64,000 bases of DNA from Patescibacteria group bacterium (GTDB lineage: Bacteria; Patescibacteriota; Microgenomatia; CAYGWK01), in the NCBI GenBank assembly GCA_049322615.1, contig JBMORX010000003.1:3328-67327 (forward strand), in the 5' to 3' direction. The translations under genes were made by a program, and so were the position numbers. The notes under the pieces were generated by a model. The model was not told where the DNA came from, ran no database searches, and worked only from the letters and a program-made list of their open reading frames with translations. Below, piece after piece: positions 1 to 49,235 of this stretch; the stretch's first letter is position 1, and the number at the start of each line of letters is the position of its first letter.

Positions 1-203
1 GAATAACAATTCCAAATTCTTTGTCAATAGGGACAATTGGTCGAAGCCCTGATTGGGGGAATTCCAGACTTACATCCAAGGAGTATCTCACCCCGCCCCA
101 TTGATTAAACCGATATCCCAACTCTTCTTTGATCACCGGACCAAAAATAAAAAGCGAAATTAAAATCCCCCCAATGATTAGAAAACTGCTAATTTTTCCC
201 ATC
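1..203 (-). CDS. Partial CDS (N-terminus only, runs off the window edge): small membrane protein with one TM helix
   Basis: The reverse-strand ATG at 201-203 opens a frame with no stop before position 1. It translates as MGKISSFLIIGGILISLFIFGPVIKEELGYRFNQWGG..., with a hydrophobic N-terminal helix. It is not in the ORF track because it is truncated by the window edge. Confidence 0.35.
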
Positions 204-212
204 GTCCCTGGA

Positions 213-242
213 GAGGTTTAACCTGGTACCAGGTTAAACCTC
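213..242. terminator. Perfect 30-bp palindrome GAGGTTTAACCTGGTACCAGGTTAAACCTC downstream of tsaB; likely a transcription terminator hairpin
   Basis: I read it directly. The reverse complement of the left 14 nt equals the right 14 nt, around a GGTACC centre. It lies 20 nt beyond the tsaB stop on the minus strand. Confidence 0.5.
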
Positions 243-262
243 ATTTTGAATGGAAATGTCTA

Positions 263-562
263 TCATTTATATTTCGGTTCAACTAGTTTACCTATCTTTT
301 GATTGTTAACCGAAACTTTCAGTGCCCAGGCTAAAGCATTGGCGACCGCCACTCCAACCCTAAGTCCCGTAAAAGAACCCGGTCCTGTTTCCACTTTAAT
401 TTCGGTTATGTCTTTTAAGGTTTTTTTATTTTTTTTAAGAATTTCTGAAATTAAAGTGAGAACTTGTTGCGATTTATCAACCCCAGTTGGTTTTTCCAAA
501 CGATCTTTATCTAACCCAACCACTGTTTTCCTGTTATCTGAAGTATCAATATATAGCCTCAT
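263..562 (-). CDS. tsaB: tRNA threonylcarbamoyladenosine biosynthesis protein TsaB (YeaZ-like), short form
   Basis: The N-terminus reads MRLYIDTS...VGL and there is a GPGSFTGLRVGVAVANALAWAL motif, matching the YeaZ/TsaB N-terminal Kae1-like fold. It sits directly downstream of tsaE. Confidence 0.7.
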   Translation of the reverse strand: MRLYIDTSDNRKTVVGLDKDRLEKPTGVDKSQQVLTLISEILKKNKKTLKDITEIKVETGPGSFTGLRVGVAVANALAWALKVSVNNQKIGKLVEPKYK

Positions 563-592
563 TTGTTTAAATGATTTAAATCATTTTAACAA
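560..592 (-). promoter_or_regulatory. Copy 1 of an identical 33-nt element (CATTTGTTTAAATGATTTAAATCATTTTAACAA) that includes the tsaB start codon and the 18-bp palindrome AAATGATTTAAATCATTT; promoter/operator candidate
   Basis: It is identical to 2163-2195 and 2641-2672. In gene orientation it reads TTGTTA-N17-TAAACA-AATG, which resembles a -35/-10 pair abutting the ATG (a leaderless start). Confidence 0.55.
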
Positions 593-1022
593 CCCTGATT
601 TTCCTGCTATCTTCTTTTAGATATTGAAAATAAATATCGATCCGCTCTTTTGGTAGGATTTTTTTAATTTTCTCCGCCCACTCAATAACAACAATATTGG
701 CAGGATTACTTAAAATTTCCTCAAGTCCTAAACCCTTTGCATCTCTTTGGCTTTCCACCCGATATAAATCTACGTGGTAAAATCTTCGCCCTTCGCCCTT
801 CTTTCTTTGCACTCGATATTCCCGTATCATCACAAATGTGGGCGAAATAACCCTTTTCTTAATACCTAAACCCTTAAGAACACCCTGAACAAAAGTGGTT
901 TTACCACTCCCCAACTCGCCATAAAGACAAATTATTGCTCTTTCTTTTAAATTATTTGCAATTTTTTCGCCCAGTTTTTGAGTTTGGCGGGCGCTTTTGG
1001 TAAGTATTTCCATATTCCCCAC
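576..1022 (-). CDS. tsaE: tRNA threonylcarbamoyladenosine biosynthesis ATPase TsaE (YjeE)
   Basis: It has the P-loop GELGSGKTTFVQG and the SPTF motif, and is about 150 aa. Confidence 0.8.
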   Translation of the reverse strand: MGNMEILTKSARQTQKLGEKIANNLKERAIICLYGELGSGKTTFVQGVLKGLGIKKRVISPTFVMIREYRVQRKKGEGRRFYHVDLYRVESQRDAKGLGLEEILSNPANIVVIEWAEKIKKILPKERIDIYFQYLKEDSRKIRVVKMI

Positions 1023-1414
1023 CAGGCAAGTAACGCCCCAAGGCTATCTATCAAAACATCTCTTGGAGTTCCTTCCCGACCCTGAGTAAAAGTTTGGTGA
1101 AATTCATCACTTGCCGCATAAAGAAAAGTCAATAAAAATGCCATAAAAGCAGCCTTTTTTTCAGGCAAGGAACTTAAGTTTTTAAGTCCGCGATACAAAA
1201 GAGTAAACAAAACCACATATTCAAAAATATGAATTGTTTTTTTAATGGCAAAATCTTGCCAATCAATATGAGAAGCCCGACCGGTCGGGAAACTGGAAAT
1301 AAAAAAAATTAGACCCATCCAGCCTAGTGGTGGAAGCCAAAATCTAGCCAAGAGGCGGAATTTCCTCATTTTTTCCATTATACCCCCTAATTTTAGGAAA
1401 TAAAAGAAAACCAC
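947..1414 (-). CDS. VanZ-like family membrane protein
   Basis: It has multiple TM segments and the motif ASDEFHQTFTQGREGTPRDVLIDSLG typical of VanZ. It overlaps tsaE by 76 nt in a different frame, so the true tsaE start may be internal. Confidence 0.55.
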   Translation of the reverse strand: MVFFYFLKLGGIMEKMRKFRLLARFWLPPLGWMGLIFFISSFPTGRASHIDWQDFAIKKTIHIFEYVVLFTLLYRGLKNLSSLPEKKAAFMAFLLTFLYAASDEFHQTFTQGREGTPRDVLIDSLGALLAWWGIWKYLPKAPAKLKNWAKKLQII

Positions 1415-2165
1415 CAGAAATCAACAAAAGCAGAGTTCCTGTGCCGATTAAAATTTTCGGCAAAAGATTTGAGGGATTTTTAGTTGTTTCTCCCAAAACT
1501 TCGGGAGTTGGCGGGGCTTCTTCCGCCGAAGGAGTTGCCTCCTCGCCCAAAATTTCCCCAGTTGGAGTAGGAATTAGAGTCGGGGTGGGAGTCGGCTTCT
1601 TCGTTGGAGTTGGAGTTGGAGTTGGCGTCGGCAGTGGCGTCGGCAGTGGCGTCGGAGTAGGAGTTGGCTCTGAAACCTCCTCTGGTTCTGGAGTCGGAGT
1701 GGGCACAACGCAGGAATTAGCGCCTCCTTTGGTTGGCACCTGACAAATGCCCCAGTCTCCACCATCAGGCATTCTTCCATAAGAAACACCGGTGCCAGGA
1801 TCCTTGGTATATTGATATTCATCGATAGTTGACCCATGATCATCTTTTAGATAAATTGTGTCGCTGCTTTTATTTAATCTGCTCCCTACCTCAAAAACCA
1901 AAAACCCCTTGGCGCTAATTGTGGCTTCCTTAATATCCACCATATTGGTAGTGGTACCTTCGTCATCTAATATCCAATTGTTTAAATTAATATCTTGACC
2001 AGTAGAATTGTAAAGCTCCACCCAATCTGGACCATCGGTTGGATTTGGCAATAGTTCATTAATGACCACCTGCGCTAAAACTTTTTCTGGTAAAAATAAA
2101 AAAATCGCCGAAGCGATTAAAAACGACAAGAAAATCTTAATTAAATAATTTTGTTTGGCAGACAT
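1344..2165 (-). CDS. Cell-surface protein with a lamin tail domain (LTD), a Pro/Thr-rich linker and a C-terminal TM anchor
   Basis: It has an N-terminal signal/TM segment. The LTD signature is VVINELLPNPTDGPDWVELYN...NLNNWILDD. A (PT)n linker follows, then a C-terminal hydrophobic segment and a basic tail. Confidence 0.6.
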   Translation of the reverse strand: MSAKQNYLIKIFLSFLIASAIFLFLPEKVLAQVVINELLPNPTDGPDWVELYNSTGQDINLNNWILDDEGTTTNMVDIKEATISAKGFLVFEVGSRLNKSSDTIYLKDDHGSTIDEYQYTKDPGTGVSYGRMPDGGDWGICQVPTKGGANSCVVPTPTPEPEEVSEPTPTPTPLPTPLPTPTPTPTPTKKPTPTPTLIPTPTGEILGEEATPSAEEAPPTPEVLGETTKNPSNLLPKILIGTGTLLLLISGGFLLFPKIRGYNGKNEEIPPLG

Positions 2166-2195
2166 TTGTTTAAATGATTTAAATCATTTTAACAA
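2163..2195 (-). promoter_or_regulatory. Copy 2 of the identical 33-nt palindrome-containing element, at the start codon of the LTD protein gene
   Basis: It is an exact match to 560-592. Confidence 0.55.
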
Positions 2196-2196
2196 A

Positions 2197-2643
2197 CTAG
2201 AATGGTTTTTCTTGGCGTTTTTTCTCAAGTTCCTGACGCAAATATCGCCAAGCGCCACTCCCCTTTCCACCTCTTCCCATCTCTCCACTTAAAGCCTCTC
2301 CAACCCTTAGAAGAAAATCCTTAACCGCCTCTTCCCGCAAAAGTTTTTTAATGATTCTTTGATATCCCTGTCCACCGTATTTTCTCATTAAATTCACCCT
2401 GGCAATAGTGGGCAGGCTTACTCGCAAAACTTTACTAATACTTCGAAAATCGTAATCCTTTTCCAGAAGAAAGGCGATAGTTAACCTTTTGGCAAGCATT
2501 ATTTGTTCAGTTGGTGTTAGAAAATCTTTAATAAACTGATTGGCTTCATCTTTTGTTTTAATTTCCACCAGACTTTTAAAGAAAATTTCAAGAATTCTTT
2601 CATAAACTGTATTAGAAATCGGATATTTAGATACTTGCGCCAT
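2197..2643 (-). CDS. TrpR/YerC-like helix-turn-helix DNA-binding protein; candidate binder of the adjacent palindrome
   Basis: The segment LTPTEQIMLAKRLTIAFLL...ISKVLRVSLPTIARV resembles the Trp-repressor-like YerC/YecD family. The gene is itself preceded by copy 3 of the palindrome. Confidence 0.45.
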   Translation of the reverse strand: MAQVSKYPISNTVYERILEIFFKSLVEIKTKDEANQFIKDFLTPTEQIMLAKRLTIAFLLEKDYDFRSISKVLRVSLPTIARVNLMRKYGGQGYQRIIKKLLREEAVKDFLLRVGEALSGEMGRGGKGSGAWRYLRQELEKKRQEKPF

Positions 2644-2672
2644 TTGTTTAAATGATTTAAATCATTTTAACA
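2641..2672 (-). promoter_or_regulatory. Copy 3 of the identical palindrome-containing element, at the start codon of the TrpR-like gene
   Basis: It is an exact match to copies 1 and 2 over 32 nt. Confidence 0.55.
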
Positions 2673-2674
2673 GA

Positions 2675-3820
2675 TTATTGAATGTGGAGATAAATAGTAA
2701 TTATTCCGTCTGGGTGGCCGATAGCGGCGAATTTAAGGGTGCTTACCCCGGAAATGCGAGGACTATCACAGGTTGTCGACCCGCGGATAATTTTCCCTTC
2801 TTTTGGCGCCCGAATTGTTAAATCATCACTTACCATATCAATTCCATCATGAATATTTCCCCCATACCATCCAAGTCTGGCGTAATAGGTCATCCCAAAA
2901 CCTTGGGTAATTTTCGGATTTAAGATCGGCCAATCCATTGAGCCCGAAAAGGGGAAAGGCCCATCCGGCTGATTATCCCAAGTCACAGGGATGGACCGAA
3001 GAAAAGTTGCTGGGTCTTGGGGATTTCCGTCTTTTAAAATAGCAAAATGAAGATGGGGACCGGTTGAACAATCAGGACCTCCAGAATTACCAAGCAAAGC
3101 AACCTGGTCTCCTTGAGCGATTGGTTCTCCCTTACCAGACTGCAATTCTTCAATTGCCTGGGCAATTGCCCGCTTGGTCGCCGCCTGCTCAGCTAAAGCC
3201 CGAGCAAGGAGGTCCTGATAAATTTTTTCTTGACTTTTAGTTTGCTCTAAAAGAAATTCCATTTCCTTTTGCTGTTTTGCTAAAGTTATTTTTTGTTCTT
3301 CCAATTTTTTCTTCAGCGCCTCGACCGCCTGTTTTTGCTCATCATAATTTGTTCTTGTTTCCTCCATCGAGAATAAAAGCTTTCGGTCATGGAGCTGCAT
3401 CACCTTCAAATATTTGAAGCGTTCAATAAACTCGGAAAATCTTTTTGAAGAAAAAAACAAAGCCAGGGGATCAAGCGAGCCTTTTTTATAAGTGGCGGCA
3501 ATTCTTTTGCCTAAAATCCCAGCCAGCGAATCTAAAGAAACCTCAAGTCGGGCAATTTTCTCTGTTAGAAGTTTAATTTGTTCTTCGGTTTGAGAGATTT
3601 TAGTGGTCGTAAGTTTTATTTGGGTCTTTCTTCTGGTGATTTCATTAGAAAGAGTTTGAGCTTTGCCCTGAAGCCTATGCAAGACTTCCTCGTAACAAGA
3701 AATCTTTGCCTGACCAGACTTTTCGGCACATTCGTCCTGATTCTGAGCAAAACTTAAGGAATGCTTAAAAAGACCAAAAATAAATAAAAAGGAAATAATT
3801 ATTCCTAACCATTTTTTCAT
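2675..3820 (-). CDS. M23 family peptidoglycan endopeptidase with an N-terminal coiled coil (EnvC-like FtsEX-associated murein hydrolase activator)
   Basis: It has a signal peptide and a long coiled coil. The C-terminal LytM motifs are GNSGGPDCSTGPHLHFAIL. It lies immediately downstream of ftsEX. Confidence 0.75.
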   Translation of the reverse strand: MKKWLGIIISFLFIFGLFKHSLSFAQNQDECAEKSGQAKISCYEEVLHRLQGKAQTLSNEITRRKTQIKLTTTKISQTEEQIKLLTEKIARLEVSLDSLAGILGKRIAATYKKGSLDPLALFFSSKRFSEFIERFKYLKVMQLHDRKLLFSMEETRTNYDEQKQAVEALKKKLEEQKITLAKQQKEMEFLLEQTKSQEKIYQDLLARALAEQAATKRAIAQAIEELQSGKGEPIAQGDQVALLGNSGGPDCSTGPHLHFAILKDGNPQDPATFLRSIPVTWDNQPDGPFPFSGSMDWPILNPKITQGFGMTYYARLGWYGGNIHDGIDMVSDDLTIRAPKEGKIIRGSTTCDSPRISGVSTLKFAAIGHPDGIITIYLHIQ

Positions 3821-4686
3821 TTAAGATAGCGTCTGGTTGCCAAAAGACTACCTAAGGTCCCGATTGCTGCCCCGCCAAAGACAAGAGCAGAAAGCAAAAC
3901 CAACATAAAAAGAGGGTCAACCGGTAGAATCGGAATTCCCGAAAGAAAAGAAACCAAAAGTGGGGTTGTGTAAAGAAGGAGAATATAAGTTATAATCCAG
4001 GCAAAGGTTCCCCCGACGACTCCGTAAAATACTCCTTCTAAGATAAAGGGGGCGCGAATATACCATGATGTTGCTCCAATTAGTTTTAAAATCTCAATTT
4101 CTTCCTTGCGGAGAGCAATTTTCATTCCAATAATGACTAAAATCACCAAAAGAGAAATAATACCCAGAGTAATCGTTAAACCTGCACCAATTCTTCGCAA
4201 AGCAGAAGTCCAAGCCGATAAAGAAGAGATAACATCCTCCTGGAAAATAACCTCTTCAACTTGAGGTTCGTTTTTGAGAATTTGCGCCACCTCGCCTAAA
4301 TCCGAAAGTTTAATCGCCGAAACCTCAAGCGAAGCCGGCAAAATATTGGCGGTTACCATTTCCAGAAGTAATGGGTCTTCTTTGTTTTGTTCCCGATAAA
4401 TTGCCAAAGCCTCCTCTTTTGAGACATATTTCATTTGGGAAACCTTAGCCGAAGCCTCAAGACGAGCTTTTAAGGCTTCAACCTGTTCTATTTTTGTCCC
4501 TTCCCTAAAAAAGGCAGTTACTTGAGGACGAGTCTCAAACCAGTTCAAAATCGCTTGAGAACCGGCCGCCAGCAAGATAAAAATGGCGGCGATGGTAAAA
4601 GTTAAGGTCATCACCAGGACTGCCGAAAGTGCCTGATAGGGCGACCTTCTTATATGTTGCCAGGCAACTTTAAAATGTTTCATCAT
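3817..4686 (-). CDS. ftsX: Cell division permease FtsX
   Basis: It has four TM helices and a periplasmic domain. It follows ftsE with a 4-nt overlap. Confidence 0.8.
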   Translation of the reverse strand: MMKHFKVAWQHIRRSPYQALSAVLVMTLTFTIAAIFILLAAGSQAILNWFETRPQVTAFFREGTKIEQVEALKARLEASAKVSQMKYVSKEEALAIYREQNKEDPLLLEMVTANILPASLEVSAIKLSDLGEVAQILKNEPQVEEVIFQEDVISSLSAWTSALRRIGAGLTITLGIISLLVILVIIGMKIALRKEEIEILKLIGATSWYIRAPFILEGVFYGVVGGTFAWIITYILLLYTTPLLVSFLSGIPILPVDPLFMLVLLSALVFGGAAIGTLGSLLATRRYLK

Positions 4687-5363
4687 ACTGGTTCGTATTT
4701 TCCTCCAGTTTGGTCTTTAATAACCTCTCCCTTGTCAAGTTTTATCACTCTTTCTTTCATTGAGTCAACAATATCAACATTATGAGTTGCCATCAAAACC
4801 GTTGTTCCCATTTTATTAATTTTTTTTAAGAGTTTAACAATTTGCCAGGAAGTTGAGGGATCAAGATTTCCTGTTGGCTCATCGGCAATTAAAATTTTTG
4901 GGTTTGAGACAACGGCTCTGGCTAAACAGGTTCGCTGAAGCTCCCCGCCTGCAAGCTGAAGCGGAAAAAGATTTTCCCGATCGGCAAGTCCGACTAATTC
5001 TAAAACTTCTCTTGTCTTTTTTTCAATTTCCTTTCTGTCTTTTTTGGTCACCTCCAAAGCCAAAGCGACATTTTCAAAAACTGTTCGATCTAGCAAAAGT
5101 TTGAAGTCCTGAAAAACCACGCCTATTTTTTGCCTCAATTTGGGAAGTTCTCCCGAAGATATTTCCGAAAGATTAGTTCCATCGATTTCGATTTTTCCTT
5201 CCGAAGGCAGGATTTCCTTAAGGATAAGTTTAACGATGGTTGTCTTTCCTGCTCCTGAAGGTCCGGTTATGAAGACAAACTCTCCAGGTTCAATCTCAAA
5301 TGAGACAGCTCGGAGAGCAACGATGTCACCAAACTTTTTAGTTACCTTTTCGAATTTTACCAT
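4683..5363 (-). CDS. ftsE: Cell division ATP-binding protein FtsE
   Basis: It has Walker A (GPSGAGKTT), an ABC signature region and Walker B (ILIADEPTGNLD). Confidence 0.85.
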   Translation of the reverse strand: MVKFEKVTKKFGDIVALRAVSFEIEPGEFVFITGPSGAGKTTIVKLILKEILPSEGKIEIDGTNLSEISSGELPKLRQKIGVVFQDFKLLLDRTVFENVALALEVTKKDRKEIEKKTREVLELVGLADRENLFPLQLAGGELQRTCLARAVVSNPKILIADEPTGNLDPSTSWQIVKLLKKINKMGTTVLMATHNVDIVDSMKERVIKLDKGEVIKDQTGGKYEPV

Positions 5364-5419
5364 TTTTTCTCATCCTCACTACTCGCCCCCGACCCACAAC
5401 TCACATCTCACCCTCATCC

Positions 5420-5839
5420 TTATTCTAAAATCTTTACCCTACCAACATCCATCAGCCAGCCTGCTTTCTGACCCTTAAAAGTTTCTCCCCAAACTTGGAC
5501 TTTTTTACCAACAAATTGGTCAAGATCAATAATTGAAGAGGTTAAATAAGCAGTTTGCGACGGTCCGCCTTCACGAATAAGTTTATGAGTTCCCTCACCA
5601 TCAATTCCATTTTTTTCAATTATTCCTGTAGCCGTATCTTTAAAGGTTTTAATATCAGGAGAGCCTACTTCTTTGCCTTTCTTAAGAGTTGGCGCAGTCA
5701 GAGCGCTACCAGGAATCACTCCTGGTTTGGCAAGGAAAAAACCAGTTAAAACTCCGGCTGCCATTATTCCCACCACCAAAAGGGCAGGGGCCAAAACTTG
5801 GCGAATGCTTTTCTTTTTTATTTCTTCAGTTTCTTCCAT
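5420..5839 (-). CDS. Hypothetical membrane-anchored protein
   Basis: There is a single N-terminal TM helix and no recognisable motif. Confidence 0.4.
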   Translation of the reverse strand: MEETEEIKKKSIRQVLAPALLVVGIMAAGVLTGFFLAKPGVIPGSALTAPTLKKGKEVGSPDIKTFKDTATGIIEKNGIDGEGTHKLIREGGPSQTAYLTSSIIDLDQFVGKKVQVWGETFKGQKAGWLMDVGRVKILE

Positions 5840-5919
5840 AACTCACCTCCTCTGCAAACGCGGAAACGCAGAACCCTTCGGGCGCAAAAACGCTAAATTT
5901 TTGCGTCTCTGCGGTTCCA

Positions 5920-6906
5920 CTATACCATACTTTTTAACTCTGCTTCAATAAATAAATCAAGTTCTCCGTCTAAAACTTTTTCCGGGTCAGACGTTTCCAC
6001 CTGTGTTCGCAAATCCTTAACCATTTTATAGGGATGCAAAACATAAGACCGAATCTGGTTTCCCCAACCGGTAACTTTTACTTCGCCCTTGAGTTTCTTC
6101 TCCTCTTCTTTAGCCCGAGCGGAAGCGAGGGCCCAGAGTTTGGCGCGCAAAAGCATTAAGGCGATTTTTCGGTTTTGTTCTTGGTAGCGCTGGGATTGAG
6201 AACAGACAACAATTCCCGTTGGTTTGTGGCGAAGCCTCACCGCCGAAGAAACTTTTTGGACATTTTGGCCACCTTGGGAGGAGGCGCGAAAAAACTCCCA
6301 AGATAAATCATTTTCAGAAATTGAGATTTCCGGTGCCTCTTCAATCTGGGGTAAAACCACGACTTGGGCAAACGAGGTTTGCCTAAGCCGGTCAGCATTA
6401 AAAGGCGATTGCCTGACTAACCTGTGAACTCCGGCCTCTCCTTTAAGATATCCATAGGCATAAGTGCCAGAAATAGTCATGGTCACACTTTTTATCCCTG
6501 CTTCTTCTCCAGGATTTAAGTCAACCACGTCCGTTTGCCAGTTTCTTTTTTCGGCGTATCGCAAATACATCCTCTGGAGGATTTCTGCCCAATCCATGGC
6601 TTCGGTCCCCCCTTGACCAGCATGAATTGACAAAATGGCATCGTTTTTATCATAAGGACCAGAAAGAAACGTTTTAAGTTCAAGATCGGCAAGCATTTTC
6701 TCATCCGGAGACAAATCAAGTGTTTCTAGATTCTCAATTGTCTTTTTCAATTCCGCCAGTTCTTGAGTTTTCTCCCTCGCCAAAGTTTGGTCCTGCCAAA
6801 ACTCCGGCTTTGCCATCTCTGCCCCTATTTCCGAAGCCCTCTTTTTCAAGGCTTCGATATCTAATTTTTCTTTAAGAACTTGAATTCTCTTTTTAAAGTC
6901 TTCCAT
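5920..6906 (-). CDS. prfB: Peptide chain release factor 2 (not frameshifted)
   Basis: It has the SPF tripeptide (SPFNADRLRQTS) and the GGQ motif (SSQGGQNVQKV). It aligns with E. coli RF2 from about residue 14, and the reading frame is continuous. Confidence 0.85.
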   Translation of the reverse strand: MEDFKKRIQVLKEKLDIEALKKRASEIGAEMAKPEFWQDQTLAREKTQELAELKKTIENLETLDLSPDEKMLADLELKTFLSGPYDKNDAILSIHAGQGGTEAMDWAEILQRMYLRYAEKRNWQTDVVDLNPGEEAGIKSVTMTISGTYAYGYLKGEAGVHRLVRQSPFNADRLRQTSFAQVVVLPQIEEAPEISISENDLSWEFFRASSQGGQNVQKVSSAVRLRHKPTGIVVCSQSQRYQEQNRKIALMLLRAKLWALASARAKEEEKKLKGEVKVTGWGNQIRSYVLHPYKMVKDLRTQVETSDPEKVLDGELDLFIEAELKSMV

Positions 6907-6992
6907 ATCAGTCTTTCTGGTTTATTCTAGCTTATTTAAGTATATCATAATTTCTGCCTCAAACCATCATCAACTTTACTATCAGTTTGTTC

Positions 6993-7008
6993 CAATGATT
7001 TAAATCAT
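6993..7008. promoter_or_regulatory. Degenerate fourth copy of the AATGATTTAAATCATT palindrome, upstream of prfB
   Basis: The sequence is CCAATGATTTAAATCATTGAATCATTT, which matches 16 of 18 positions of the core. It lies about 90 nt upstream of the prfB start. Confidence 0.4.
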
Positions 7009-7106
7009 TGAATCATTTAGGCACAGATTTTCACTTTTTAATTAATAACCTTGAAACTATAGGAGATCTTCTGTAAGTATGTTTTCTCGGGCAAATTTAA
7101 GGCGGA

Positions 7107-7454
7107 TTATTTTCCTGCTTCTTGAGAAGACCAGACAAGAAATAATCTCTTTTTGAAACTCCCTCGTTCCTCTCTTTTCGTAACCTGTTTTTCTTCTACC
7201 AATCTGAAGTCAATTCCGTAGAATTCAGAAATTGATTTAAGAAGTTCCAAAACATCAGCCATTTCGTTTAATAAATCTTCCCTGGGAGTAGTTAATAATT
7301 CACTTGCCTCCTCTGCTAATTTCTTTTTTAGCTCTCGCTCAAATTCTCTCTCTTCCATGACTCCTACTTCATACTGACCACCGCTAGCCTCAATAATTTC
7401 CGGAATTCTATCCCTAATCAGTTTATTATGAAGAAACTTCCTTTCCTGAGTCAT
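7107..7454 (-). CDS. MazG/HisE-like nucleoside triphosphate pyrophosphohydrolase (start moved to an internal Met)
   Basis: The motif pattern KLIRDRIPEII...EE.EL..KL.EE..EL...DLL.E.ADV matches the all-alpha NTP pyrophosphatase fold. The first 18 codons of the tracked ORF fall inside the 34-bp palindromic element and are probably not translated. Confidence 0.5.
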   Translation of the reverse strand: MTQERKFLHNKLIRDRIPEIIEASGGQYEVGVMEEREFERELKKKLAEEASELLTTPREDLLNEMADVLELLKSISEFYGIDFRLVEEKQVTKREERGSFKKRLFLVWSSQEAGK

Positions 7455-7491
7455 GGCGCGATTATACCACAAAAATTCACACACTAATTTC

Positions 7492-7525
7492 TTGACAAAA
7501 TCTGGCACGTGCGGAATTTTGTCAA
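7492..7525. repeat. Palindromic element copy a: TTGACAAAAT-CTGG-CACGTG-CGGA-ATTTTGTCAA
   Basis: I read it directly. The 10-bp arms are perfect inverted repeats around a CACGTG core. It lies in the divergent region between 7107-7454(-) and 7611-7901(+). Confidence 0.7.
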
Positions 7526-7610
7526 GGCGGAAGAGGTAAGAGGCAAATTCAAAAAAACGGGAAGAATTTGACTATTGATTTTTAATTTTTCTTTTTGTTA
7601 AGATTTCTTT

Positions 7611-7901
7611 ATGTTGACTAAGGCTGATTTGTCTCAAATCCGAAAAATTGTCAGAGAGGAGATAGAAACTGAATCAAAATCTCTTCAGGAAGAACTTCAA
7701 GGAGAAATCAAACTCTCGCGAATGGAGATTCAGAAAGATGTTCACCTACTTGCAAATAAAGTTAAGAACCTAGAGATGATAGCTAACAAAATTCAAAAGA
7801 GCATCAAGTCGGTTGTAAATTTCTTTGACAGAGAATATCTTCGGCTTCGGAAACAGGTTGAGCGCCTCGAAGAACACCTCAATCTTCCCTCGCTCCAGTA
7901 A
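7611..7901 (+). CDS. Small coiled-coil protein (paralog of 30976-31239)
   Basis: It is 96 aa with heptad-rich sequence. Its N-terminus MLTKADLSQIRKIVREEIE resembles MLTRKDLKEEIEIAV of the second gene. The upstream TTGACTATTGATTTTT is shared with the upstream region of 30976. Confidence 0.45.
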   Translation: MLTKADLSQIRKIVREEIETESKSLQEELQGEIKLSRMEIQKDVHLLANKVKNLEMIANKIQKSIKSVVNFFDREYLRLRKQVERLEEHLNLPSLQ

Positions 7902-7929
7902 AATCTAGTCAAAAACAAGGCCCAAATCG

Positions 7930-7963
7930 TTGACAAAATAGAACACGTGTCTTATTTTGTCAA
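7930..7963. repeat. Palindromic element copy b: TTGACAAAAT-AGAA-CACGTG-TCTT-ATTTTGTCAA
   Basis: It has perfect arms and sits in the convergent intergenic region. Confidence 0.7.
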
Positions 7964-8044
7964 AATACGCAAAAAGATGCTCGAGGGAAATTTTGTGTGG
8001 GTTTACATTGAGTTCACCGAACTGCAAATTTAAAAGCGGGAAGA

Positions 8045-24850: not shown

Positions 24851-24968
24851 ACACAATTTCAAGCGGTCGCATAAATTTGTGTCCCTGTATCATTGTACTA
24901 TTACAATAGTACAAAACTGCGATAATCAAATCGCCAAACTCCAGGAGGTGAATAGGTTCACATCTAAG

Positions 24969-39758: not shown

Positions 39759-41105
39759 ATGAAGCTTGAACTTCCAGAGTTTGTTTGCCAAATTTTAGAA
39801 AAATTTAAAGCCTGCGGCTTTGAAATTTATATTGTTGGTGGTTCGGTTAGAGATATACTTTTAGGCAGGGAAGTTATTGATTGGGACTTTACTACCAATG
39901 CCCCACCAGTACAAATTCTAGAAATTTTTCCTGATGGTTTTTATGACAATAAATTCGGGACGGTGGGAATTTCTCATCCCTCATCACCTTATCCTTATGA
40001 AATTACCACCTTTAGAAAAGAAGTTGGCTATTCAGATCGAAGACATCCTGACAAGGTAATTTGGGGAGACACTCTGGAAGAAGATTTAGGTAGACGAGAT
40101 TTTACAATTAATGCCATGGCTCTTCGCTATGCTCAGGGTAAACCTTCACTTATTGATTATTTTGACGGACAAAAAGATTTAAAAGCAAGACTTATTCGGG
40201 CAGTTGGAAATCCAAATAAAAGATTTTCCGAGGATGCCCTGCGTTTGATGCGGGCAATTCGACTTGCCACGGAGATTTCTTTTACCATCGAACCAAAAAC
40301 TTTCCAAGCCATAAAAGAAAATGCCACTTTAATTAATCAAATTGCTAAAGAGCGCGTTAGAGACGAGCTTTTCAAAATTCTCAAAAGCGATTTTCCTGCT
40401 GATGGATTCACTTTACTTTTGTCTTCAGGACTTCTGGAACAAATTATGCCAGAACTTCTCAAGGGTTACGGAGTGGAACAAGCAAAACATCATATCTATG
40501 ATGTTTGGACCCACTCACTTTTATCTTTAAAAAATTGTCCCAGCCCCGACCCTCTGGTTCGCCTGGCAACCCTACTTCATGATATTGGCAAACCAGTGGT
40601 TGCCAAAGGTTCAGGAGAAAAAAGAACTTTCTATAACCACGAGGTCGTCAGCGCTTCAATCGCCAGGAATATTGGTGCAAGGCTTCGCTTATCAAAAAAA
40701 CAAATAGGAAAACTAGTCATCCTTGTTCGCTGGCATCAATTTACGTGCGATGAGAGACAAACTGATTCGGCGATTAGGCGTTTTATCAGAAATGTTGGCA
40801 AAGAAAATTTACAAGATATGCTTGACCTTCGGGTTGGCGACAGGCTTGGGGGCGGCGCTCGAGAAACCTCTTGGAGACTAGAAGAATTTAAAAAAAGACT
40901 TTTAGAAGTTCAAAAACAACCGTTCTCTGTCACTGATTTAAAAGTTAATGGCAATGATGTCATGGAAATTTTAAAGATAGGTCCAGGACCAAGGGTTGGA
41001 AAAATTCTCGAAGCCCTTTTTGCTGAAGTGGTTGAAGATATGAAAAGAAACGAAAGAAAATGTCTTTTGAAACGTATCAGAGAAATCGGTAAAACCCTAG
41101 TTTAA
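39759..41105 (+). CDS. cca: CCA-adding tRNA nucleotidyltransferase with an HD domain
   Basis: It has the Pol-beta head motif GGSVRDILLGREVIDWDFTT and an HD domain (LLHDIGKP). Confidence 0.8.
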   Translation: MKLELPEFVCQILEKFKACGFEIYIVGGSVRDILLGREVIDWDFTTNAPPVQILEIFPDGFYDNKFGTVGISHPSSPYPYEITTFRKEVGYSDRRHPDKVIWGDTLEEDLGRRDFTINAMALRYAQGKPSLIDYFDGQKDLKARLIRAVGNPNKRFSEDALRLMRAIRLATEISFTIEPKTFQAIKENATLINQIAKERVRDELFKILKSDFPADGFTLLLSSGLLEQIMPELLKGYGVEQAKHHIYDVWTHSLLSLKNCPSPDPLVRLATLLHDIGKPVVAKGSGEKRTFYNHEVVSASIARNIGARLRLSKKQIGKLVILVRWHQFTCDERQTDSAIRRFIRNVGKENLQDMLDLRVGDRLGGGARETSWRLEEFKKRLLEVQKQPFSVTDLKVNGNDVMEILKIGPGPRVGKILEALFAEVVEDMKRNERKCLLKRIREIGKTLV

Positions 41106-41369
41106 TTAATTAAACTACAATTTCTTTCCGCTATCATGATATAAATCAATAGAGCAAGCCGCTACAATTTCCGCGATTCCCGATACAGTAGCGGAATGGG
41201 TATTGCTAAAAAGGTAGTTAAATATTACAATCAGGAAAGAATTAATAGCAACCATGGTTGCTCACCTTTTGAATCCTTAAGAGAAACTTTTACAAAAATA
41301 AATAACTGTTCTAGCTTAAAAAGAACCAAAAGTGGTTCAGAAAAAGGGTTTCAGTTCCAATTAAGTAGC

Positions 41370-43229: not shown

Positions 43230-43292
43230 AGGATAATTTTAGTATTCTTCAAGGCGGTGTAAGCGATTTAAATCATTAGAACAAGCCGCGCA

Positions 43293-43316
43293 TCATATAT
43301 TAATATATGATGCATA
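43293..43316. promoter_or_regulatory. Perfect 24-bp palindrome GCATCATATATTAATATATGATGC upstream of rsmA
   Basis: I read it directly. An adjacent GATTTAAATCA half-copy of the tsaB-type palindrome lies at 43277-43287. Confidence 0.45.
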
Positions 43317-43338: not shown

Positions 43339-43599
43339 TTAGACCTGAGGTTTCTGATAACTCTCAAAGGCAGCAGCCGCTGTCGGATTAACGCCCCTTA
43401 AAAGCTCTAAAACTTTGTTTCTGATTTCTAACGAATGAATAATCCCGTTTTGAGCCGCACCTTGAGCCCAAGACTCAACTTGAACGGTAATGCTTTCTGC
43501 CTCTGCAGCACTTGCTCCAGATTTGAGCAAACCCGCTGATATTTTATTGCGATCAAAAGGCTCGAGACTTCCGTCCTTCTTTTGAACTTGCAAATTCAT
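43339..43599 (-). CDS. ATP-cone domain protein (86 aa)
   Basis: The N-terminus KKDGSLEPFDRNKI matches the ATP-cone consensus (V.KRDG..E.FD..KI). Confidence 0.5.
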   Translation of the reverse strand: MNLQVQKKDGSLEPFDRNKISAGLLKSGASAAEAESITVQVESWAQGAAQNGIIHSLEIRNKVLELLRGVNPTAAAAFESYQKPQV

Positions 43600-44495
43600 T
43601 TTCTCACCCCCTTTCTTCTTTCTTCAATTTGATTCCAGATGACTAACAAGGGGGCGGCGGTGAAGGTTGAAGAATAAGTTCCGGAGATGGTGCCGATTAA
43701 CAAAGCGGCAACAAACCACTTAATAGTTACCCCTCCTAAAAGTAAAAGAGCAATTAACATAAAAATAATAGTTAGGGAGTTATTCAAAGACCGCGAGAGG
43801 GTCTCGGTGACGGCTTTGTTAACTAAATCCACAAATGCTGTTTGGGGCAATCTTTTTTGCGATTCCCGAATTCGGTCATAAACAACGACCGTATCATGAA
43901 CCGAGAAAGAAAGAATCGTCAACATGGCGGTCACAAATAAAGTATCAATTTCAACGTTCAAGAAATGTCCCAAAAGAGAAAAACTTCCCAATAAAACAAA
44001 GGAGTCATGAAACATTGCCAAAATGGCGCAAATTCCAAACTTAGGGTCTTTGAAAGCCCAGGCAACATAACCTAGAATAAATCCAGCAGCCAAGATTATG
44101 GCAATCAAAGTTTTTACTAAGAGTTCTCGTCCCAAAATCGGACCAACGGTTTCAAAGCGAAGTTCTTGGGGCATTTCTTCAAATTTCTCCGCCAAGGCGG
44201 CTTTGATGGTTGAAACATCGTCTTTGGTGATTGGTTTTAAGCGGATTAAAACAGTTTTGTTGCCGGAAATTTGAACTGAAGAAACATCAAAATTTTTATT
44301 TTTTATCGTCTCCTCAATTGCTAAATTGCTAAATTGCTCAATTGCTGGCTTCTCGAATTTCAATTCGAGTAAAGAACCGCCGGTGAAATCAATTGAGGGT
44401 TTAAGACCAAAGAGGATAAGAGAAAAAATTCCCGGCACCAAAACCAGGGCGGATAAAAGAAAATACAGCCATTTAAATTTCATAAAATTCAACAT
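43596..44495 (-). CDS. secF: Protein-export membrane protein SecF
   Basis: It has six TM helices and the SecD/F family topology. It lies downstream of secD. Confidence 0.85.
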   Translation of the reverse strand: MLNFMKFKWLYFLLSALVLVPGIFSLILFGLKPSIDFTGGSLLELKFEKPAIEQFSNLAIEETIKNKNFDVSSVQISGNKTVLIRLKPITKDDVSTIKAALAEKFEEMPQELRFETVGPILGRELLVKTLIAIILAAGFILGYVAWAFKDPKFGICAILAMFHDSFVLLGSFSLLGHFLNVEIDTLFVTAMLTILSFSVHDTVVVYDRIRESQKRLPQTAFVDLVNKAVTETLSRSLNNSLTIIFMLIALLLLGGVTIKWFVAALLIGTISGTYSSTFTAAPLLVIWNQIEERRKGVRK

Positions 44496-44525
44496 CCGAA
44501 TACTCCCGAATTTAAATAATCCGAA

Positions 44526-45863
44526 TTAATCCGAATTTTTACCTCGATAAAGTGCTCTCAATAGTGTTCTTGTCACCACGATACCCGTAAACAGGGAAAT
44601 AAATATCCCCAAACTTAAAGTTAAAGCAAATCCCCGGACCATGCCCGAGACATTTAAGAAATTCCAATTAAAAGGATTAAATAAAATAAAACAGGTAATT
44701 AAAGTACAAATATTGGCATCCCGAATTGAATCCCAAGCCCGACCAAAACCAAGTTCTAACGCTTGCTGCCAGGGTTTGCCTGAGCGAATTTCTTCTTTCA
44801 TTCTTTCAAAAATTAAAATATTTGCGTCAACTGCCATCCCGACGGAAAGGATAAATCCGGCAATTCCAGGCAAAGTTAAAGTTACCGGAATAAGTTTATA
44901 TAAAGCCAGCGTTATTAAACCATAAATTATTAAAGCCAAATCTGCTAAAAACCCAAGTTTTCCATAATATGCCCACATAAAACCAACAACCATTAAAAGT
45001 CCAACTAAACCTGCCCTCATACTTCTTTGAACCGACTCGACTCCCAGAGTAGCGCCAACATTTCGTTGTTCAATAATTTTGATGGGGACGGGAAGAGCTC
45101 CAGCATTAAGCTTAATTGATAAATCGCGGGCGCCATCAACGGTAAAATTTCCTCTAATAATAGCATCGCCTGAAGTAATTGCCTCCTCAACTACTGGAGT
45201 TGAAATTGGTCTACCATCAAGATAAATAGCCACGATTTTGCCAACATTTCTCAAGGTTATATCAGCAAACTTTTTCGCTCCCTCGGATGAGAACTCTAGA
45301 CTAACGATCGGTTGCCCTGTATTTTGGTCAAATCTAACCTGAGAGCGTTTTAAATCTTTGCCAGTTAAATCAGTGGGCTTAAAACCAGCTGCGGGTGTTG
45401 CCTCTTTCTGTTCCCAAAATTCAAGTTGAGCTGTCGTTCCGATTAAATCAATAGCACGATTGATATCCTTGACTCCCGGCAGTTCAACAACTAAACGATA
45501 GTCTTCACCCCTCTTTGAGGTTTGGACCGTTGCTTCAGTTACCCCAAAGAAATTAACCCGACGTTCGATATTATTCTTGGCTGCCTCTATCGCCGAATCT
45601 CTATCTTCTGGGCTAATTTTTTTTATCTCAGCTTGAAAAACCAAATGTGTTCCCCCGGCTAAATCCAGTCCTTGTTTAAGGTGAAGTTCTCGCTTTATTT
45701 TTAAATTACCCAAGGAAAAATCAAGGTCCGGACCAGAAATTTTCGTGTCAACGGAAAATTTTCTCCAAGAGAATTTAATTGGAAAATCTTTGGGGAGATC
45801 GATAATAAACGAGATAATGGTCAAAAAAATGATAAATAAGAGGAGCAGTCTTTTTTGTTTCAT
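44526..45863 (-). CDS. secD: Protein-export membrane protein SecD
   Basis: It has a large periplasmic loop and six TM helices, with the conserved C-terminal RND-like core. Confidence 0.85.
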   Translation of the reverse strand: MKQKRLLLLFIIFLTIISFIIDLPKDFPIKFSWRKFSVDTKISGPDLDFSLGNLKIKRELHLKQGLDLAGGTHLVFQAEIKKISPEDRDSAIEAAKNNIERRVNFFGVTEATVQTSKRGEDYRLVVELPGVKDINRAIDLIGTTAQLEFWEQKEATPAAGFKPTDLTGKDLKRSQVRFDQNTGQPIVSLEFSSEGAKKFADITLRNVGKIVAIYLDGRPISTPVVEEAITSGDAIIRGNFTVDGARDLSIKLNAGALPVPIKIIEQRNVGATLGVESVQRSMRAGLVGLLMVVGFMWAYYGKLGFLADLALIIYGLITLALYKLIPVTLTLPGIAGFILSVGMAVDANILIFERMKEEIRSGKPWQQALELGFGRAWDSIRDANICTLITCFILFNPFNWNFLNVSGMVRGFALTLSLGIFISLFTGIVVTRTLLRALYRGKNSD

Positions 45864-46755: not shown

Positions 46756-47937
46756 TTAATAACTCACCTCGCTTCCTGTGGGCAGAATTTCAATCCAAAT
46801 TTGTCCCCGATTAAGTTTTATTTCTTTACCTTTCGTGTCTTTAAAAACCATTCTCTCTTTGCGGTCTTTTTTATTCCAAGTCCCCTCTAAAACTTGACCA
46901 TCCTGAAAGATAAGCACTTTACCCGAACCTTTTGTGCCATATAGAAGATGAAGATTCCCCTCATAGCCATCGTTGGCTCTTGACTCTTTCATAAAAGCAA
47001 GGACTACTACCTTTCCTCGAATCTCGCTCTCATCATTTCTATCTTTCTGGGCTAACCCGCCATTAATTCTTTTATAATCATTTGCTGTCTGGTCGTATTC
47101 CCATTTAACATCATAATCCGAATATCCTTTCCAGAAAGAAAATGTCGGACTTTTTGTCCCCCTTTCGCCTTCTTTGCTATCTTCTTTAAATTGCCATTTA
47201 AGAAAATTTTTATCCCAAGGAACACTTGCTTCGTCGACATTCGTCAAATTTCTTTTTTCCGCCACGATAAAAAGCTTATCGCTCGTCGAATACATCGTGT
47301 GTTCCGTCGCCACCGGATGGTCAAGCCGCTCGTAATCTCGCCAAAAAGTAGGAAAACCAATTGAAAATTGATTTAAATCATTTCCTTTTTTAAGCCAACC
47401 ATAGTCGCCAATTTGCCCTAAAGCATTGGCTCTCCCGGGGGTATTGGCACCACCAACATGAGCATAGAGGGGAAAATCTCCATATTCTGAAGCAAAATCA
47501 AGAAAATAAGTTCGAGCCGAGCGGACTGGACCGATTTGAACATCAAAAGCCGAGACACCACAGTAAAAAATTGCTAAAAATCGGGTAATTCCTCCTTCGG
47601 AGACTGCCTCATAGACAATATCGGCTCGAGAAACCCCTGATTGAGGACGAGAGTCTTGATGATTTTCAATCATGACGCTCAATGGTCGGCGCTTACTCCA
47701 GATATCTTTTTCTGCTTTGGTATATTTTTGACCATTTAGAGGACATTCTTCGGTCTTAGGAGCCGATAAATCAACCCTAAATTTACTCTCTCCTGAAGGT
47801 AAGGGAGAAACTATCAAAGGACCGGGAACTTTAAGGTAAGAAAAAGTGGCATAAGAGATACCAGTCGTTAAAAGATAAAGACCAAGTCCGGCTAAAGTTA
47901 AAAGTATTATTTTTTTCTTTTCTCTAATTTTTTCCAT
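46756..47937 (-). CDS. DUF3048 (YerB-like) putative lipoprotein
   Basis: It has an N-terminal TM/signal segment and motifs such as IENHQDSRPQSG, ADIVYE and EGGITRFLAIF. Confidence 0.55.
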   Translation of the reverse strand: MEKIREKKKIILLTLAGLGLYLLTTGISYATFSYLKVPGPLIVSPLPSGESKFRVDLSAPKTEECPLNGQKYTKAEKDIWSKRRPLSVMIENHQDSRPQSGVSRADIVYEAVSEGGITRFLAIFYCGVSAFDVQIGPVRSARTYFLDFASEYGDFPLYAHVGGANTPGRANALGQIGDYGWLKKGNDLNQFSIGFPTFWRDYERLDHPVATEHTMYSTSDKLFIVAEKRNLTNVDEASVPWDKNFLKWQFKEDSKEGERGTKSPTFSFWKGYSDYDVKWEYDQTANDYKRINGGLAQKDRNDESEIRGKVVVLAFMKESRANDGYEGNLHLLYGTKGSGKVLIFQDGQVLEGTWNKKDRKERMVFKDTKGKEIKLNRGQIWIEILPTGSEVSY

Positions 47938-48766: not shown

Positions 48767-48809
48767 ATTCGGATACATTCGGATAATTTTCATTCGGATG
48801 AATTCGGAT
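48767..48809 (+). repeat. Four direct repeats of ATTCGGAT phased at 10, 15 and 10 bp (iteron-like or tandem regulator-binding sites)
   Basis: The copies are at 48767, 48777, 48792 and 48802, so spacing is about one helical turn. Confidence 0.5.
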
Positions 48810-48869
48810 GTCCAGAAAAACTCGCCAGGAAAAAATTATTGCCGACCTCCGCCGAAGACTGGAAGCAAC

Positions 48870-49015: not shown

Positions 49016-49235
49016 TTAAAAAAGACTTGACAAAAACCTTTCTCTTGACAATACTTGCAATTAGCCTTGAGCTTGTGCTATACTTCCTAACTAGGATAGG
49101 CAAGATTTAAAAACTTTACTCTGCCCGACTAGAATTATAATCGTAGCTTAGGCAATGGCGAAAAAGGAGGCTTGCCTCTCCGAAGCTCGCCTACGCCAAA
49201 GGCTACGGCGAGCGAAGGGAGGTGAGAAAGATTTA

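Follow-up and report, generated by a model that had tools for sequence, protein, structure and literature searches.

Three near-identical 33-nt elements, each ending at a start codon, are very likely the operators of the 148-aa TrpR/YerC-like protein that is encoded between two of them in the window (the whole 64-kb stretch of Patescibacteria DNA that was analysed), to judge from sequence comparison across the family. In ~80% of the homologous loci across the family, a second copy of the palindrome is found directly after the stop codon of the TrpR-like gene whatever the identity or direction of the next gene, so that the TrpR-like gene has its own putative operator on both sides. The elements, the related sites and the genes concerned are these:

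560..592, minus strand: element copy 1, putative operator ending at the tsaB ATG
2163..2195, minus strand: element copy 2, starting 1-2 nt past the stop codon of the TrpR-like gene and ending at the ATG of the lamin-tail-domain (LTD) gene
2641..2673, minus strand: element copy 3, putative operator and ATG of the TrpR/YerC-like gene
2197..2643, minus strand: TrpR/YerC-like protein, 148 aa, putative repressor
263..562, minus strand: short (99 aa) gene of the TsaB N-terminal type, putative regulated target
1344..2165, minus strand: LTD surface protein gene, putative regulated target
947-1414: VanZ, following LTD with overlapping ORFs
576-1022: tsaE, following VanZ with overlapping ORFs
6991..7012, no strand assigned: fourth site, TCCAATGATTTAAATCATTGAA, whose 16-bp core is perfect and which lies ~85 nt ahead of the prfB ATG
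43261..43278, no strand assigned: weak degenerate site, AAGCGATTTAAATCATTA, intergenic, upstream of rsmA, with 3 mismatches to the 18-mer
47366..47383, no strand assigned: near-match, AATTGATTTAAATCATTT, within a DUF3048 coding region, with 1 mismatch to the 18-mer

The identities of TsaB, TsaE, VanZ, LTD, the TrpR/YerC-like protein, the M23 peptidase and RsmA have been confirmed. The sequence CATTTGTTTAAATGATTTAAATCATTTTAACAA (33 nt) is present exactly at 560-592 and 2163-2195; at 2641-2673 it is identical over 32 nt and differs in its last base, a G, so that the three identical 33-mers of the original prediction are two exact copies and one that falls a single base short, in keeping with the coordinates 2641-2672 given for it there. 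By chance none would be expected (zero matches in 100 dinucleotide-preserving shuffles). Positions bear out that the elements end at the ATGs of tsaB, the LTD gene and the TrpR/YerC-like gene. Copy 3 occupies the whole 31-nt gap after the M23 peptidase stop codon, and copy 1 overlaps the 3' end of tsaE over its final five codons and stop codon.

The perfect 18-bp palindrome that had been described within each copy does occur exactly three times in the window, and exact and near matches together number 6 against 0.33 expected; its symmetry is wider than had been proposed, each copy holding a near-palindrome of 28-30 bp, TTGTT-A-AAATGATTTAAATCATTT-A-AACAA, with one asymmetric pair. A degenerate copy before prfB had also been predicted correctly: at 6993-7010 it has 2 mismatches to the 18-bp palindrome and shares with the three elements a perfect 16-mer core, AATGATTTAAATCATT. 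A promoter-like site, TTGATG-18-TATGAT, lies immediately downstream of it. The half-copy ahead of rsmA is real, at 43264-43275 and not at 43277, and the function of the site at 43261-43278 is uncertain. The near-match at 47366, which the original prediction did not list, is probably due to chance and outside the system.

The assignment of the 148-aa protein to the TrpR/YerC families holds: it matches PF01371 with 53.5 bits (cutoff 27) over residues 18-101, and TIGR02531 (YerC/YecD) with 43.8 bits (cutoff 42.2), its score of 23.3 against TIGR01321 (TrpR proper) being under the cutoff of 67. It has an all-helical TrpR fold with a helix-turn-helix (domain at ~residues 11-104), and its best structural matches are of the HisR type (3g1c, 3frw and 3kor). 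At 148 aa the protein exceeds the ~90-108 aa of the small single-domain TrpR family; nearly all members of its subfamily are 144-152 aa long (best 150 representatives). The additional length is a C-terminal extension of ~45 aa (~residues 105-148), modelled with low confidence and conserved across the subfamily, with G128, W132, Y134 and L135 as conserved residues. The 64-kb window encodes no further TrpR-like paralogue.

Comparison across Patescibacteria strongly supports the protein as the ligand of the palindrome. In 66 of 79 homologous loci a strong palindrome (defined as at least 11/14 complementary pairs, at most 75 nt upstream of the ATG) precedes the TrpR-like gene; the same threshold is reached by 1.1% of random windows and by 3.0% of the regions upstream of other ORFs. 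All five close relatives keep a site ahead of both the TrpR-like gene and the LTD gene, the orthologous position of copy 3 being conserved in L002, L004, L006, L007 and L008. The site preceding tsaB is kept in two of the four relatives that retain tsaB (L004 and L006, not L002 and L008), and the prfB-upstream site was not found in relatives. Among these close relatives the core stays constant at the same two positions as the flanks drift, and the invariant core of the window's clade is ATGATTTAAATCAT. Palindrome symmetry ends abruptly 14 bp from the dyad, a sharp edge that is footprint-like.

Operator type changes in step with residues at the beginning of the recognition helix. The motif S-x-G-T pairs with a TTC|GAA centre, a combination that, by comparison with the sisters L017/L021/L027, arose independently in L058; RVTPPTIA pairs with ATAT|ATAT, and KVSTTTV with GTATT|AATAC. 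In many Patescibacteria operators CACTTTA...TAAAGTG forms the outer arms, and in the L010-type operator TTTA-N6-TAAA fits twice, at an 8-bp offset. Together with the 66/79 loci and the conservation in relatives, this co-variation supports the proposal that the palindrome is the operator of the adjacent TrpR/YerC-like protein. (A metagenome-wide scan for AAATGATTTAAATCATTT is of no use for defining the regulon, because the matches are mostly single and in unrelated AT-rich DNA; what this means in numbers is that 116/120 among the matches listed are of this kind, lacking a TrpR-like gene, and that among the matches listed such a gene accompanies only L090, L107, L128 and L129. The flanking palindrome pair is present in three of these four, namely those with a contig spanning the TrpR-like gene.)

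A second palindrome lies ~3 nt past the stop codon of the TrpR-like gene in ~80% of loci (at least 61/79), and the spacing between the two flanking sites is 470-540 bp. It is present even where the next gene is convergent (20/47 convergent). Downstream neighbours are mixed (LTD 7, SecDF 4, LytR_C 4, GyrA 3, RecA 3, and others); this heterogeneity and the convergent cases argue against a conserved partner gene downstream that would explain why the second palindrome is there. The original prediction had missed that the post-stop copy is a family-wide feature, regardless of the downstream gene.

The arrangement of the promoter probably differs from the one first proposed. TTGTTA-N17-TAAACA finds no support as a -35/-10 pair: the TAAACA position reads AGAACA in L002, L007 and L008, and a sigma-70 scan calls no promoter at the elements, a result that also counts against the operator model. 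TAAACA, moreover, ends 1 nt before the ATG instead of three, which is too close for transcription to start at the A. The better -10 candidate, from sequence, is an extended -10, TGnTAnnAT, in the left arm of the palindrome, which is conserved in the window's clade and would leave a leader of ~14 nt. Leaderless transcripts are not indicated in the window, where the proposed -10 lies too close to the ATG, and in the relative L004 the palindrome is followed by leaders with Shine-Dalgarno sequences; the idea does fit other subfamilies (L031 and L048, for example), which have the truly leaderless geometry TTGACA-17-TATCAT-9-ATG. In many subfamilies TTGACA stands 17 nt ahead of a -10 inside the palindrome, and this overlap of sites with promoter elements speaks for the operator model. 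Other promoters of the window are TTGACA/TAnAAT-like, with short leaders or none, and do not carry the palindrome motif.

A mechanism compatible with this anatomy would have a TrpR-fold homodimer, possibly two dimers per site, binding the elements by recognition of the 28-bp palindrome with its clade-invariant core. The promoter may be built into the left arm of the operator (extended -10 TGnTAAAAT), and because operator and promoter would overlap, binding would repress the downstream genes: the TrpR-like gene itself, the LTD-VanZ-tsaE unit and tsaB, with prfB perhaps modulated. The post-stop copy may be an auxiliary operator, acting through cooperative binding or through looping with the promoter-proximal site, and in the window's clade it would double as the operator of the next gene. 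Binding, repression, promoter position and looping are what we infer, a looping role for the second site purely so. In the survey of +/-10 kb around homologues, the detectable sites at most loci mostly flank the repressor's own gene, with no obvious physiological output, and this counts against the operator model. Doubtful when taken as a whole is the most elaborate form of the proposal, in which an operator, a 450-bp repressor gene and a second operator would form a cassette with two tandem dimers per site, looping around the gene and capable of inversion by way of its mutual inverted repeats.

The palindromes might instead work as sense-strand RNA hairpins and not as DNA operators, placed at the 5' and 3' ends of the TrpR-like mRNA to terminate, process or stabilise it. 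The elements do fold, into 12-bp hairpins of -7 to -10 kcal/mol with z-scores of -1.5 to -3.3, and the post-stop copy, present even where the two genes converge, is compatible with such a role. So are compensatory double changes in the arms: the outer arms of copies within a genome often differ, yet each copy is self-complementary (46/63 double changes at d=9, 10, 12, 13 and 14), which hints that a constraint of a structural (hairpin or cruciform) or a mutational (template-switch) kind is at work and, not being obviously needed by a sequence-reading homodimer, also counts to that extent against the operator model. What makes the hairpin explanation improbable is that mismatches on the sense strand are not enriched in G.T (38 G.T vs 69 A.C), that the TTGACA -35 of many subfamilies forces transcription to start inside or after the palindrome, and that the inner 14 bp are conserved as sequence, beyond pairing, and co-vary with residues of the helix-turn-helix. 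No terminator is called at the elements, whose AT-rich hairpins lack a U-tract, and Rfam 15 covariance models give no match there (E<=1, positions 1-8000). An intrinsic terminator is specifically ruled out, the stems being almost all A-T and followed by AUG rather than by U's.

Alternatively, the gene with its two palindromes may be a cassette shaped by recombination, with the mutual inverted repeats mediating inversion or gene conversion and the 33-nt identity reflecting concerted evolution. Copies within a genome are identical even at asymmetric positions (the arms match in L002, L007 and L008 too); in L006 both flanking copies have a TTTGAA centre that is absent from the tsaB copy; several genomes have two paralogous cassettes; and in two comparisons, L020 vs L045 and L063 vs L074, the cassette has the opposite orientation between flanking neighbours that are conserved on either side. 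Heterogeneous downstream neighbours point the same way. Against this, five relatives show stable synteny around the window's cassette, the cassette has no associated recombinase or transposase (the protein is an HTH-only TrpR fold), and in the window identity ends precisely at functional boundaries, the ATG and the palindrome end. As an alternative to operators it is quite improbable; recombination accounts for the likeness of the copies and not for their presence, and thus complements the operator model without replacing it. That the element is just a compact promoter of general use in the organism, or a REP/MITE-type dispersed repeat, unrelated to the TrpR-like protein, is most improbable, for all its promoter-like hexamers and its exact placement in three short intergenic gaps: ubiquity is the mark of a generic promoter, and strong sites number four per 64 kb, all inside one 7-kb gene cluster, with the window's other promoters devoid of the motif. 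Across lineages, moreover, the motif changes with the TrpR-like protein, and it flanks the TrpR-like gene in 79 loci. Integron attC sites, IS200-like hairpin ends and dif sites are rejected on account of the HTH-only TrpR fold, a misfit to the core-site consensus and stable synteny.

Taken as a putative repressor-operator pair, the system most resembles HisR (= B. subtilis YerC), a TrpR-family histidine repressor of <100 aa, often autoregulated and with lineage-specific motifs, which binds the 20-bp palindrome cacTTTAnnnnnnTAAAgtg, as validated in vitro (PMC9413887). The two share TIGR02531 and PF01371, and a palindromic operator with TTTA/TAAA half-sites. They differ in that the 148-aa protein is ~45 aa longer, with a conserved C-terminal extension; in that the 28-bp Patescibacteria operator is 8 bp longer, with an added inner ATGAT...ATCAT core; and in that the window's sites stand ahead of the TrpR-like gene, LTD, tsaB and prfB and not of histidine genes, his genes being absent from the top downstream Pfam families at 77 loci. 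HisR is not known to have a second operator directly past the stop codon.

E. coli TrpR is likewise an autoregulated homodimeric HTH repressor with a palindrome overlapping its promoter, properties that are here predicted, and its tandem dimers (1TRR, 1TRO) have an 8-bp offset equal to the difference in length between HisR and Patescibacteria sites. At ~20% identity and with a different operator consensus (TGTACTAGTTAACTAGTACA), however, it gives no reason to assume a tryptophan corepressor for the 148-aa protein, and it has neither the C-terminal extra region nor a self-bracketing pair of operators. Two identical putative sites a few hundred bp apart, one of them at a promoter, also recall LacI O1/O2, GalR, DeoR and lambda CI OL-OR, although the proteins are unrelated and looping would be conjectural here. 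Since the auxiliary site immediately follows the repressor's stop codon, a loop would enclose exactly the repressor gene, unlike in LacI-type systems.

Patescibacteria (CPR) are almost entirely uncultivated and are thought to have very few transcription factors; to our knowledge, essentially nothing is known of their gene regulation. The TrpR-like family comprises at least 1000 sequence clusters, and the bracketed repressor layout with its lineage-specific palindrome recurs in hundreds of uncultivated Patescibacteria lineages, which implies a large, previously undescribed family of matched putative repressor-operator pairs (no description of the TrpR-like family in these organisms was found in the literature covered, which was incomplete and leaves room for an earlier one). 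What this offers is a concrete putative protein-DNA pairing for the family that can be checked without growing the organism. The parallel variation seen in recognition helix and operator provides a ready specificity code for a minimal HTH repressor, and the putative pairs are potentially orthogonal parts for synthetic biology. If the cassette proposal were true, they would offer dozens of mutually orthogonal pairs as a natural library and would add a major, undescribed layer of regulation in Patescibacteria. The post-stop copy, for its part, may show how genomes that have hardly any intergenic space accommodate auxiliary operators. The putative targets, a surface protein and the tRNA t6A-modification genes tsaE and tsaB, hint at a link between the envelope and translation capacity.

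The elements that flank the TrpR/YerC-like gene, together with the copy at tsaB, are best explained as operators bound by the adjacent TrpR/YerC-like repressor, an assignment that, judged from sequence, is very probable. The 33-mer CATTTGTTTAAATGATTTAAATCATTTTAACAA is found exactly at two places in the window and with one change, in its last base, at a third (the original prediction had all three identical); 100 dinucleotide-preserving shuffles yield no match. In gene orientation the element reads TTGTTAAAATGATTTAAATCATTTAAACAA-ATG, and each copy is palindromic over 28-30 bp apart from one asymmetric pair. The features are:

560-592, exact copy at the tsaE/tsaB junction, doubling as coding sequence for TsaE's last five residues
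2163-2195, exact copy filling the entire gap between the TrpR-like and LTD (lamin-tail-domain surface protein) genes
2197-2643 (-), TrpR/YerC-like gene, 148 aa
2641-2673, copy with the changed last base, filling the entire gap between the M23 peptidase and TrpR-like genes
All (-), gene order prfB, 139-aa ORF, ftsE, ftsX, M23 peptidase, TrpR/YerC-like, LTD, VanZ, tsaE, TsaB-type (99 aa)

Gene calls and family matches agree in placing the element before tsaB, the LTD gene and the TrpR/YerC-like gene, as proposed, and the related site expected before prfB is present, with a perfect 16-bp core in common with the elements. Near-copies of the 18-bp palindrome at 6993, 43261 and 47366 bring its matches to 6 (0.33 expected), and the 12-mer TGATTTAAATCA has 8 matches in the window at one mismatch or fewer (0.82 expected). 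The match at 47366, within a DUF3048 coding region, is probably due to chance.

The TrpR-like protein is identical (100%) to a 'YerC/YecD family TrpR-related protein' of a Patescibacteria MAG, and its homologues in Microgenomates-type lineages number in the hundreds. (Homologous loci from other Patescibacteria genomes are numbered with the prefix L.) In five close relatives (L002, L004, L006, L007 and L008; proteins 68-78% identical, loci of 12-20 kb) the order prfB...M23-TrpR-LTD-VanZ-tsaE-tsaB is kept, and the core ATGATTTAAATCAT precedes both the TrpR-like gene and the LTD gene, as in the window. The third copy, before tsaB, is present in L004 and L006 and absent from L002 and L008; the prfB site is confined to the window. 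These 12-20-kb loci contain no further zero-mismatch core, which marks the motif as specific rather than a generic promoter.

The association extends far beyond this clade. Eighty loci with homologues down to 36% identity were retrieved from species-representative genomes, spanning Shapiro-, Levy-, Gottesman-, Davies-, Curtiss-, Roizman- and Woesebacteria, WWE3, Saccharibacteria, Paceibacterota and others, and almost every one has a long palindrome immediately 5' of the ATG. At least 11 of 14 complementary pairs are found within 75 nt upstream in 66 of 79 loci, against 1.1% of random windows and 3.0% of regions preceding the other ORFs of these loci. The palindrome's sequence depends on lineage (ATGATTTAAATCAT, ATGATTCGAATCAT, ATGATATATATCAT, ATAATATATATTAT, ATGTTTTAAAACAT, ATGTATTAATACAT, ATGTTCTAGAACAT, GATGATACGTATCATC). 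Complementarity is 0.71-0.99 out to 14 bp from the dyad and ~0.4 further out; the unit is therefore 28 bp (28-30 bp in the window), and the 18-bp palindrome originally described, while palindromic, is only part of it. In four WWE3/Saccharibacteria-type loci (L066, L069, L070, L072) the palindrome is split (ATGAATT-N8-AATTCAT), the stop codon is not followed by another copy, and GAGCCCCTGCC is conserved ahead of the downstream gene.

The TrpR/YerC-like identity of the protein is borne out by matches above cutoff to Pfam PF01371 and NCBIfam TIGR02531 and by Foldseek, which ranks the HisR/YerC-type proteins 3g1c, 3frw and 3kor highest for an AF2 model (90-sequence alignment; pLDDT >90 at residues 11-100). 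A C-terminal extension, ~45 aa more than in HisR or TrpR, has conserved G128, W132, Y134 and L135 and is modelled, at low confidence, as helices 108-120 and 129-144 with a Gly-rich loop between them. The family comprises 3350 clusters (50% identity) at E<=1e-3 and 1020 at E<=1e-10; nearly all of the best 150 cluster representatives are 144-152 aa long.

When proteins are sorted by operator type, the first residues of the recognition helix (S76-x-x-T79 in the protein from the window) vary with the operator's central bases, although such counts are confounded by shared ancestry. S-[LA]-[PT]-T goes with the centre TTT/AAA (dyad at the slash), RVTPPTIA with ATAT/ATAT, KVSTTTV with GTATT/AATAC and, in three separate groups, S-x-G-T with TTC/GAA. 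One of these groups is L058, whose nearest relatives (L017, L021, L027) have V/L-T/A-T with TTT/AAA. Shared ancestry notwithstanding, the repeated independent switching of helix and operator is what direct readout predicts. Asymmetric centres (TTC/AAA or TTT/GAA), often in both copies, occur in L016, L020, L057, L076, L006 and L017, and look like evolutionary intermediates between the TTT/AAA and TTC/GAA types.

HisR, a TrpR-family repressor that is often autoregulated, has a 20-bp palindromic operator, cacTTTAnnnnnnTAAAgtg, with binding validated in vitro for Ruminococcus gnavus (PMC9413887). Many Patescibacteria operators have the form CACTTTA-ATGATATATATCAT-TAAAGTG, that is, HisR-like outer arms set 8 bp wider apart with a new core between them. 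The L010-type operator TGCTTTAATGATTTAAATCATTAAAGCA accommodates the HisR core TTTA-N6-TAAA at two positions, offset by 8 bp; tandem TrpR dimers in PDB 1TRR reportedly have the same offset. The 8 extra bp might be read by a second dimer or by the basic C-terminal extension. The protein has the TrpR fold, belongs to the YerC/YecD sequence family and probably shares the working mode of TrpR and HisR, but is set apart from described members by its length, by the length of its operator, by its targets and by the operator pair that brackets its own gene. No published description of a Patescibacteria TrpR-like protein with flanking operators was found in the searchable literature.

Two copies in one genome nearly always agree throughout the inner 14 bp, and positions 9, 10, 13 and 14 from the dyad are often changed on both arms with complementarity kept (for example TGACTCGATG...CATCGAGTCA against TGTAGCGATG...CATCGCTACA in L081). 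Double changes remain complementary in 46 of 63 cases (positions 9, 10, 12, 13 and 14 pooled over intragenome pairs), so that symmetry itself looks favoured, by selection or by a templated mutational process. Sense-strand RNA hairpins are an unlikely source, because mismatches show no G.T bias (38 G.T against 69 A.C), many promoters would begin transcription within the palindrome, and the stems, besides being weak, have no U-tract. The arm symmetry may stem from correction of quasi-palindromes by template switching, or from a requirement for a cruciform or a particular shape.

At least 61 of 79 loci (~80%; ~64 of 74 by eye) carry their lineage-specific palindrome a second time, past the stop codon of the TrpR-like gene. 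Median distances are ~4 nt from the end of the first palindrome to the ATG and ~3 nt from the stop to the start of the second, and their centres are 470-540 bp apart. Examples of flanking positions are:

L010, 9974 and 10459
L031, 9977 and 10452
L081, 9971 and 10391
Window, 2641-2673 and 2163-2195

Of the genes past the second copy, 27 run in the same direction as the TrpR-like gene and 20 are convergent with it; their functions are unrelated between loci (LTD, SecDF, LytR_C, GyrA, RecA in 3 loci, CysS and MetG among them). This ties the second copy to the repressor gene and not to a conserved target, although in the window's clade it also sits as the LTD gene's putative operator. Its role is assigned with less confidence than binding. 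An auxiliary operator, cooperative with the promoter-proximal one, is the preferred reading: with so little intergenic DNA, the gap past the 450-bp gene would be the nearest room for a 28-bp palindrome. A transcriptional roadblock or insulator is the alternative to such an auxiliary operator.

Flanking copies in one genome match even at asymmetric substitutions: L006 has TTTGAA in both and TTTAAA in its tsaB copy, and L002, L007 and L008 likewise have asymmetric arms common to both. Some homogenisation between copies is therefore likely, and the earlier choice between selection and recent copying is answered by both. With respect to conserved genes on either side, the cassette (gene plus both palindromes) has opposite orientations in L020 and L045, and likewise in L063 and L074, which suggests recombination between the flanking palindromes; it would yield exactly this arrangement. 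Several genomes have two paralogous cassettes with differing palindromes (locus pairs from one assembly each: L011/L031, L007/L029, L027/L030, L018/L046, L013/L048, L032/L081, L060/L072, L043/L073), suggesting non-cross-reacting repressor-operator pairs in one cell.

The promoter first proposed, TTGTTA-N17-TAAACA, does not hold: TAAACA ends 1 nt before the ATG and is AGAACA in L002, L007 and L008, and L004 has a Shine-Dalgarno sequence, AGGTGAG, between palindrome and ATG. The ATG is the real start, because the N-terminus M-x-Q-x-S-K-Y-P is conserved. Every clade copy keeps an extended -10 in the left arm: TGTTAAAAT (window, L006), TGTTATCAT (L002, L007, L008), and TGATACTAT or TGATATCAT (L004). 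It would predict a start near the dyad and a ~14-nt leader without Shine-Dalgarno. The window palindrome's sole asymmetric pair, at -11 (TAAAAT in the gene direction, TTAAAT in reverse), would make this promoter one-directional. The left-arm assignment is held less firmly than binding. Elsewhere (L031, L048, L077 and L085, for example) TTGACA lies 17-18 nt 5' of a -10 that falls within the palindrome, 6-9 nt ahead of the ATG, a geometry that reads as genuinely leaderless; in L019, L040 and L058 the inner half-site TTGATT serves as -35 for a downstream TAGAAT or TATAAT box. Whatever the layout, operator and core promoter elements overlap, consistent with repression. The promoters of other genes in the window are of the ordinary TTGACA/TAnAAT kind and often lie 6-9 nt ahead of the ATG.

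The window holds further repeats. A perfect 24-bp palindrome, GCATCATATATTAATATATGATGC, at 43290-43313 upstream of rsmA adjoins the degenerate site 43261-43278 and may be the operator of another regulator, encoded outside the window. AT-rich palindromes at 41098-41117 and 24893-24914 (TAGTTTAATTAATTAAACTA and TTGTACTATTACAATAGTACAA) have arms like operator types of distant paralogues (TAGTTTAAACTA in L073; TTGTAC...GTACAA in L050). Exact ATTCGGAT repeats (9 copies, 3.2 expected) form clusters of three and four, spaced 10-15 nt, at 44494-44536 (-) and 48767-48809 (+), directly 5' of ORFs 43596-44495 and 48808-49110; they look like a distinct regulatory motif built of direct repeats. The palindrome GAGGTTTAACCTGGTACCAGGTTAAACCTC at 213-242 (30 bp, perfect, with G+C content), 20 nt 3' of the tsaB stop, was called terminator-like by the scan and is probably the real terminator of the gene cluster. 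TsaB itself is 99-101 aa, about half the usual length, in the window (263-562), L001 (12148-12450) and L004 (12683-12988), and its matches to TsaB/TsaD models are confined to their N-terminal part; L004 has a Sua5/TsaC gene between tsaE and tsaB.
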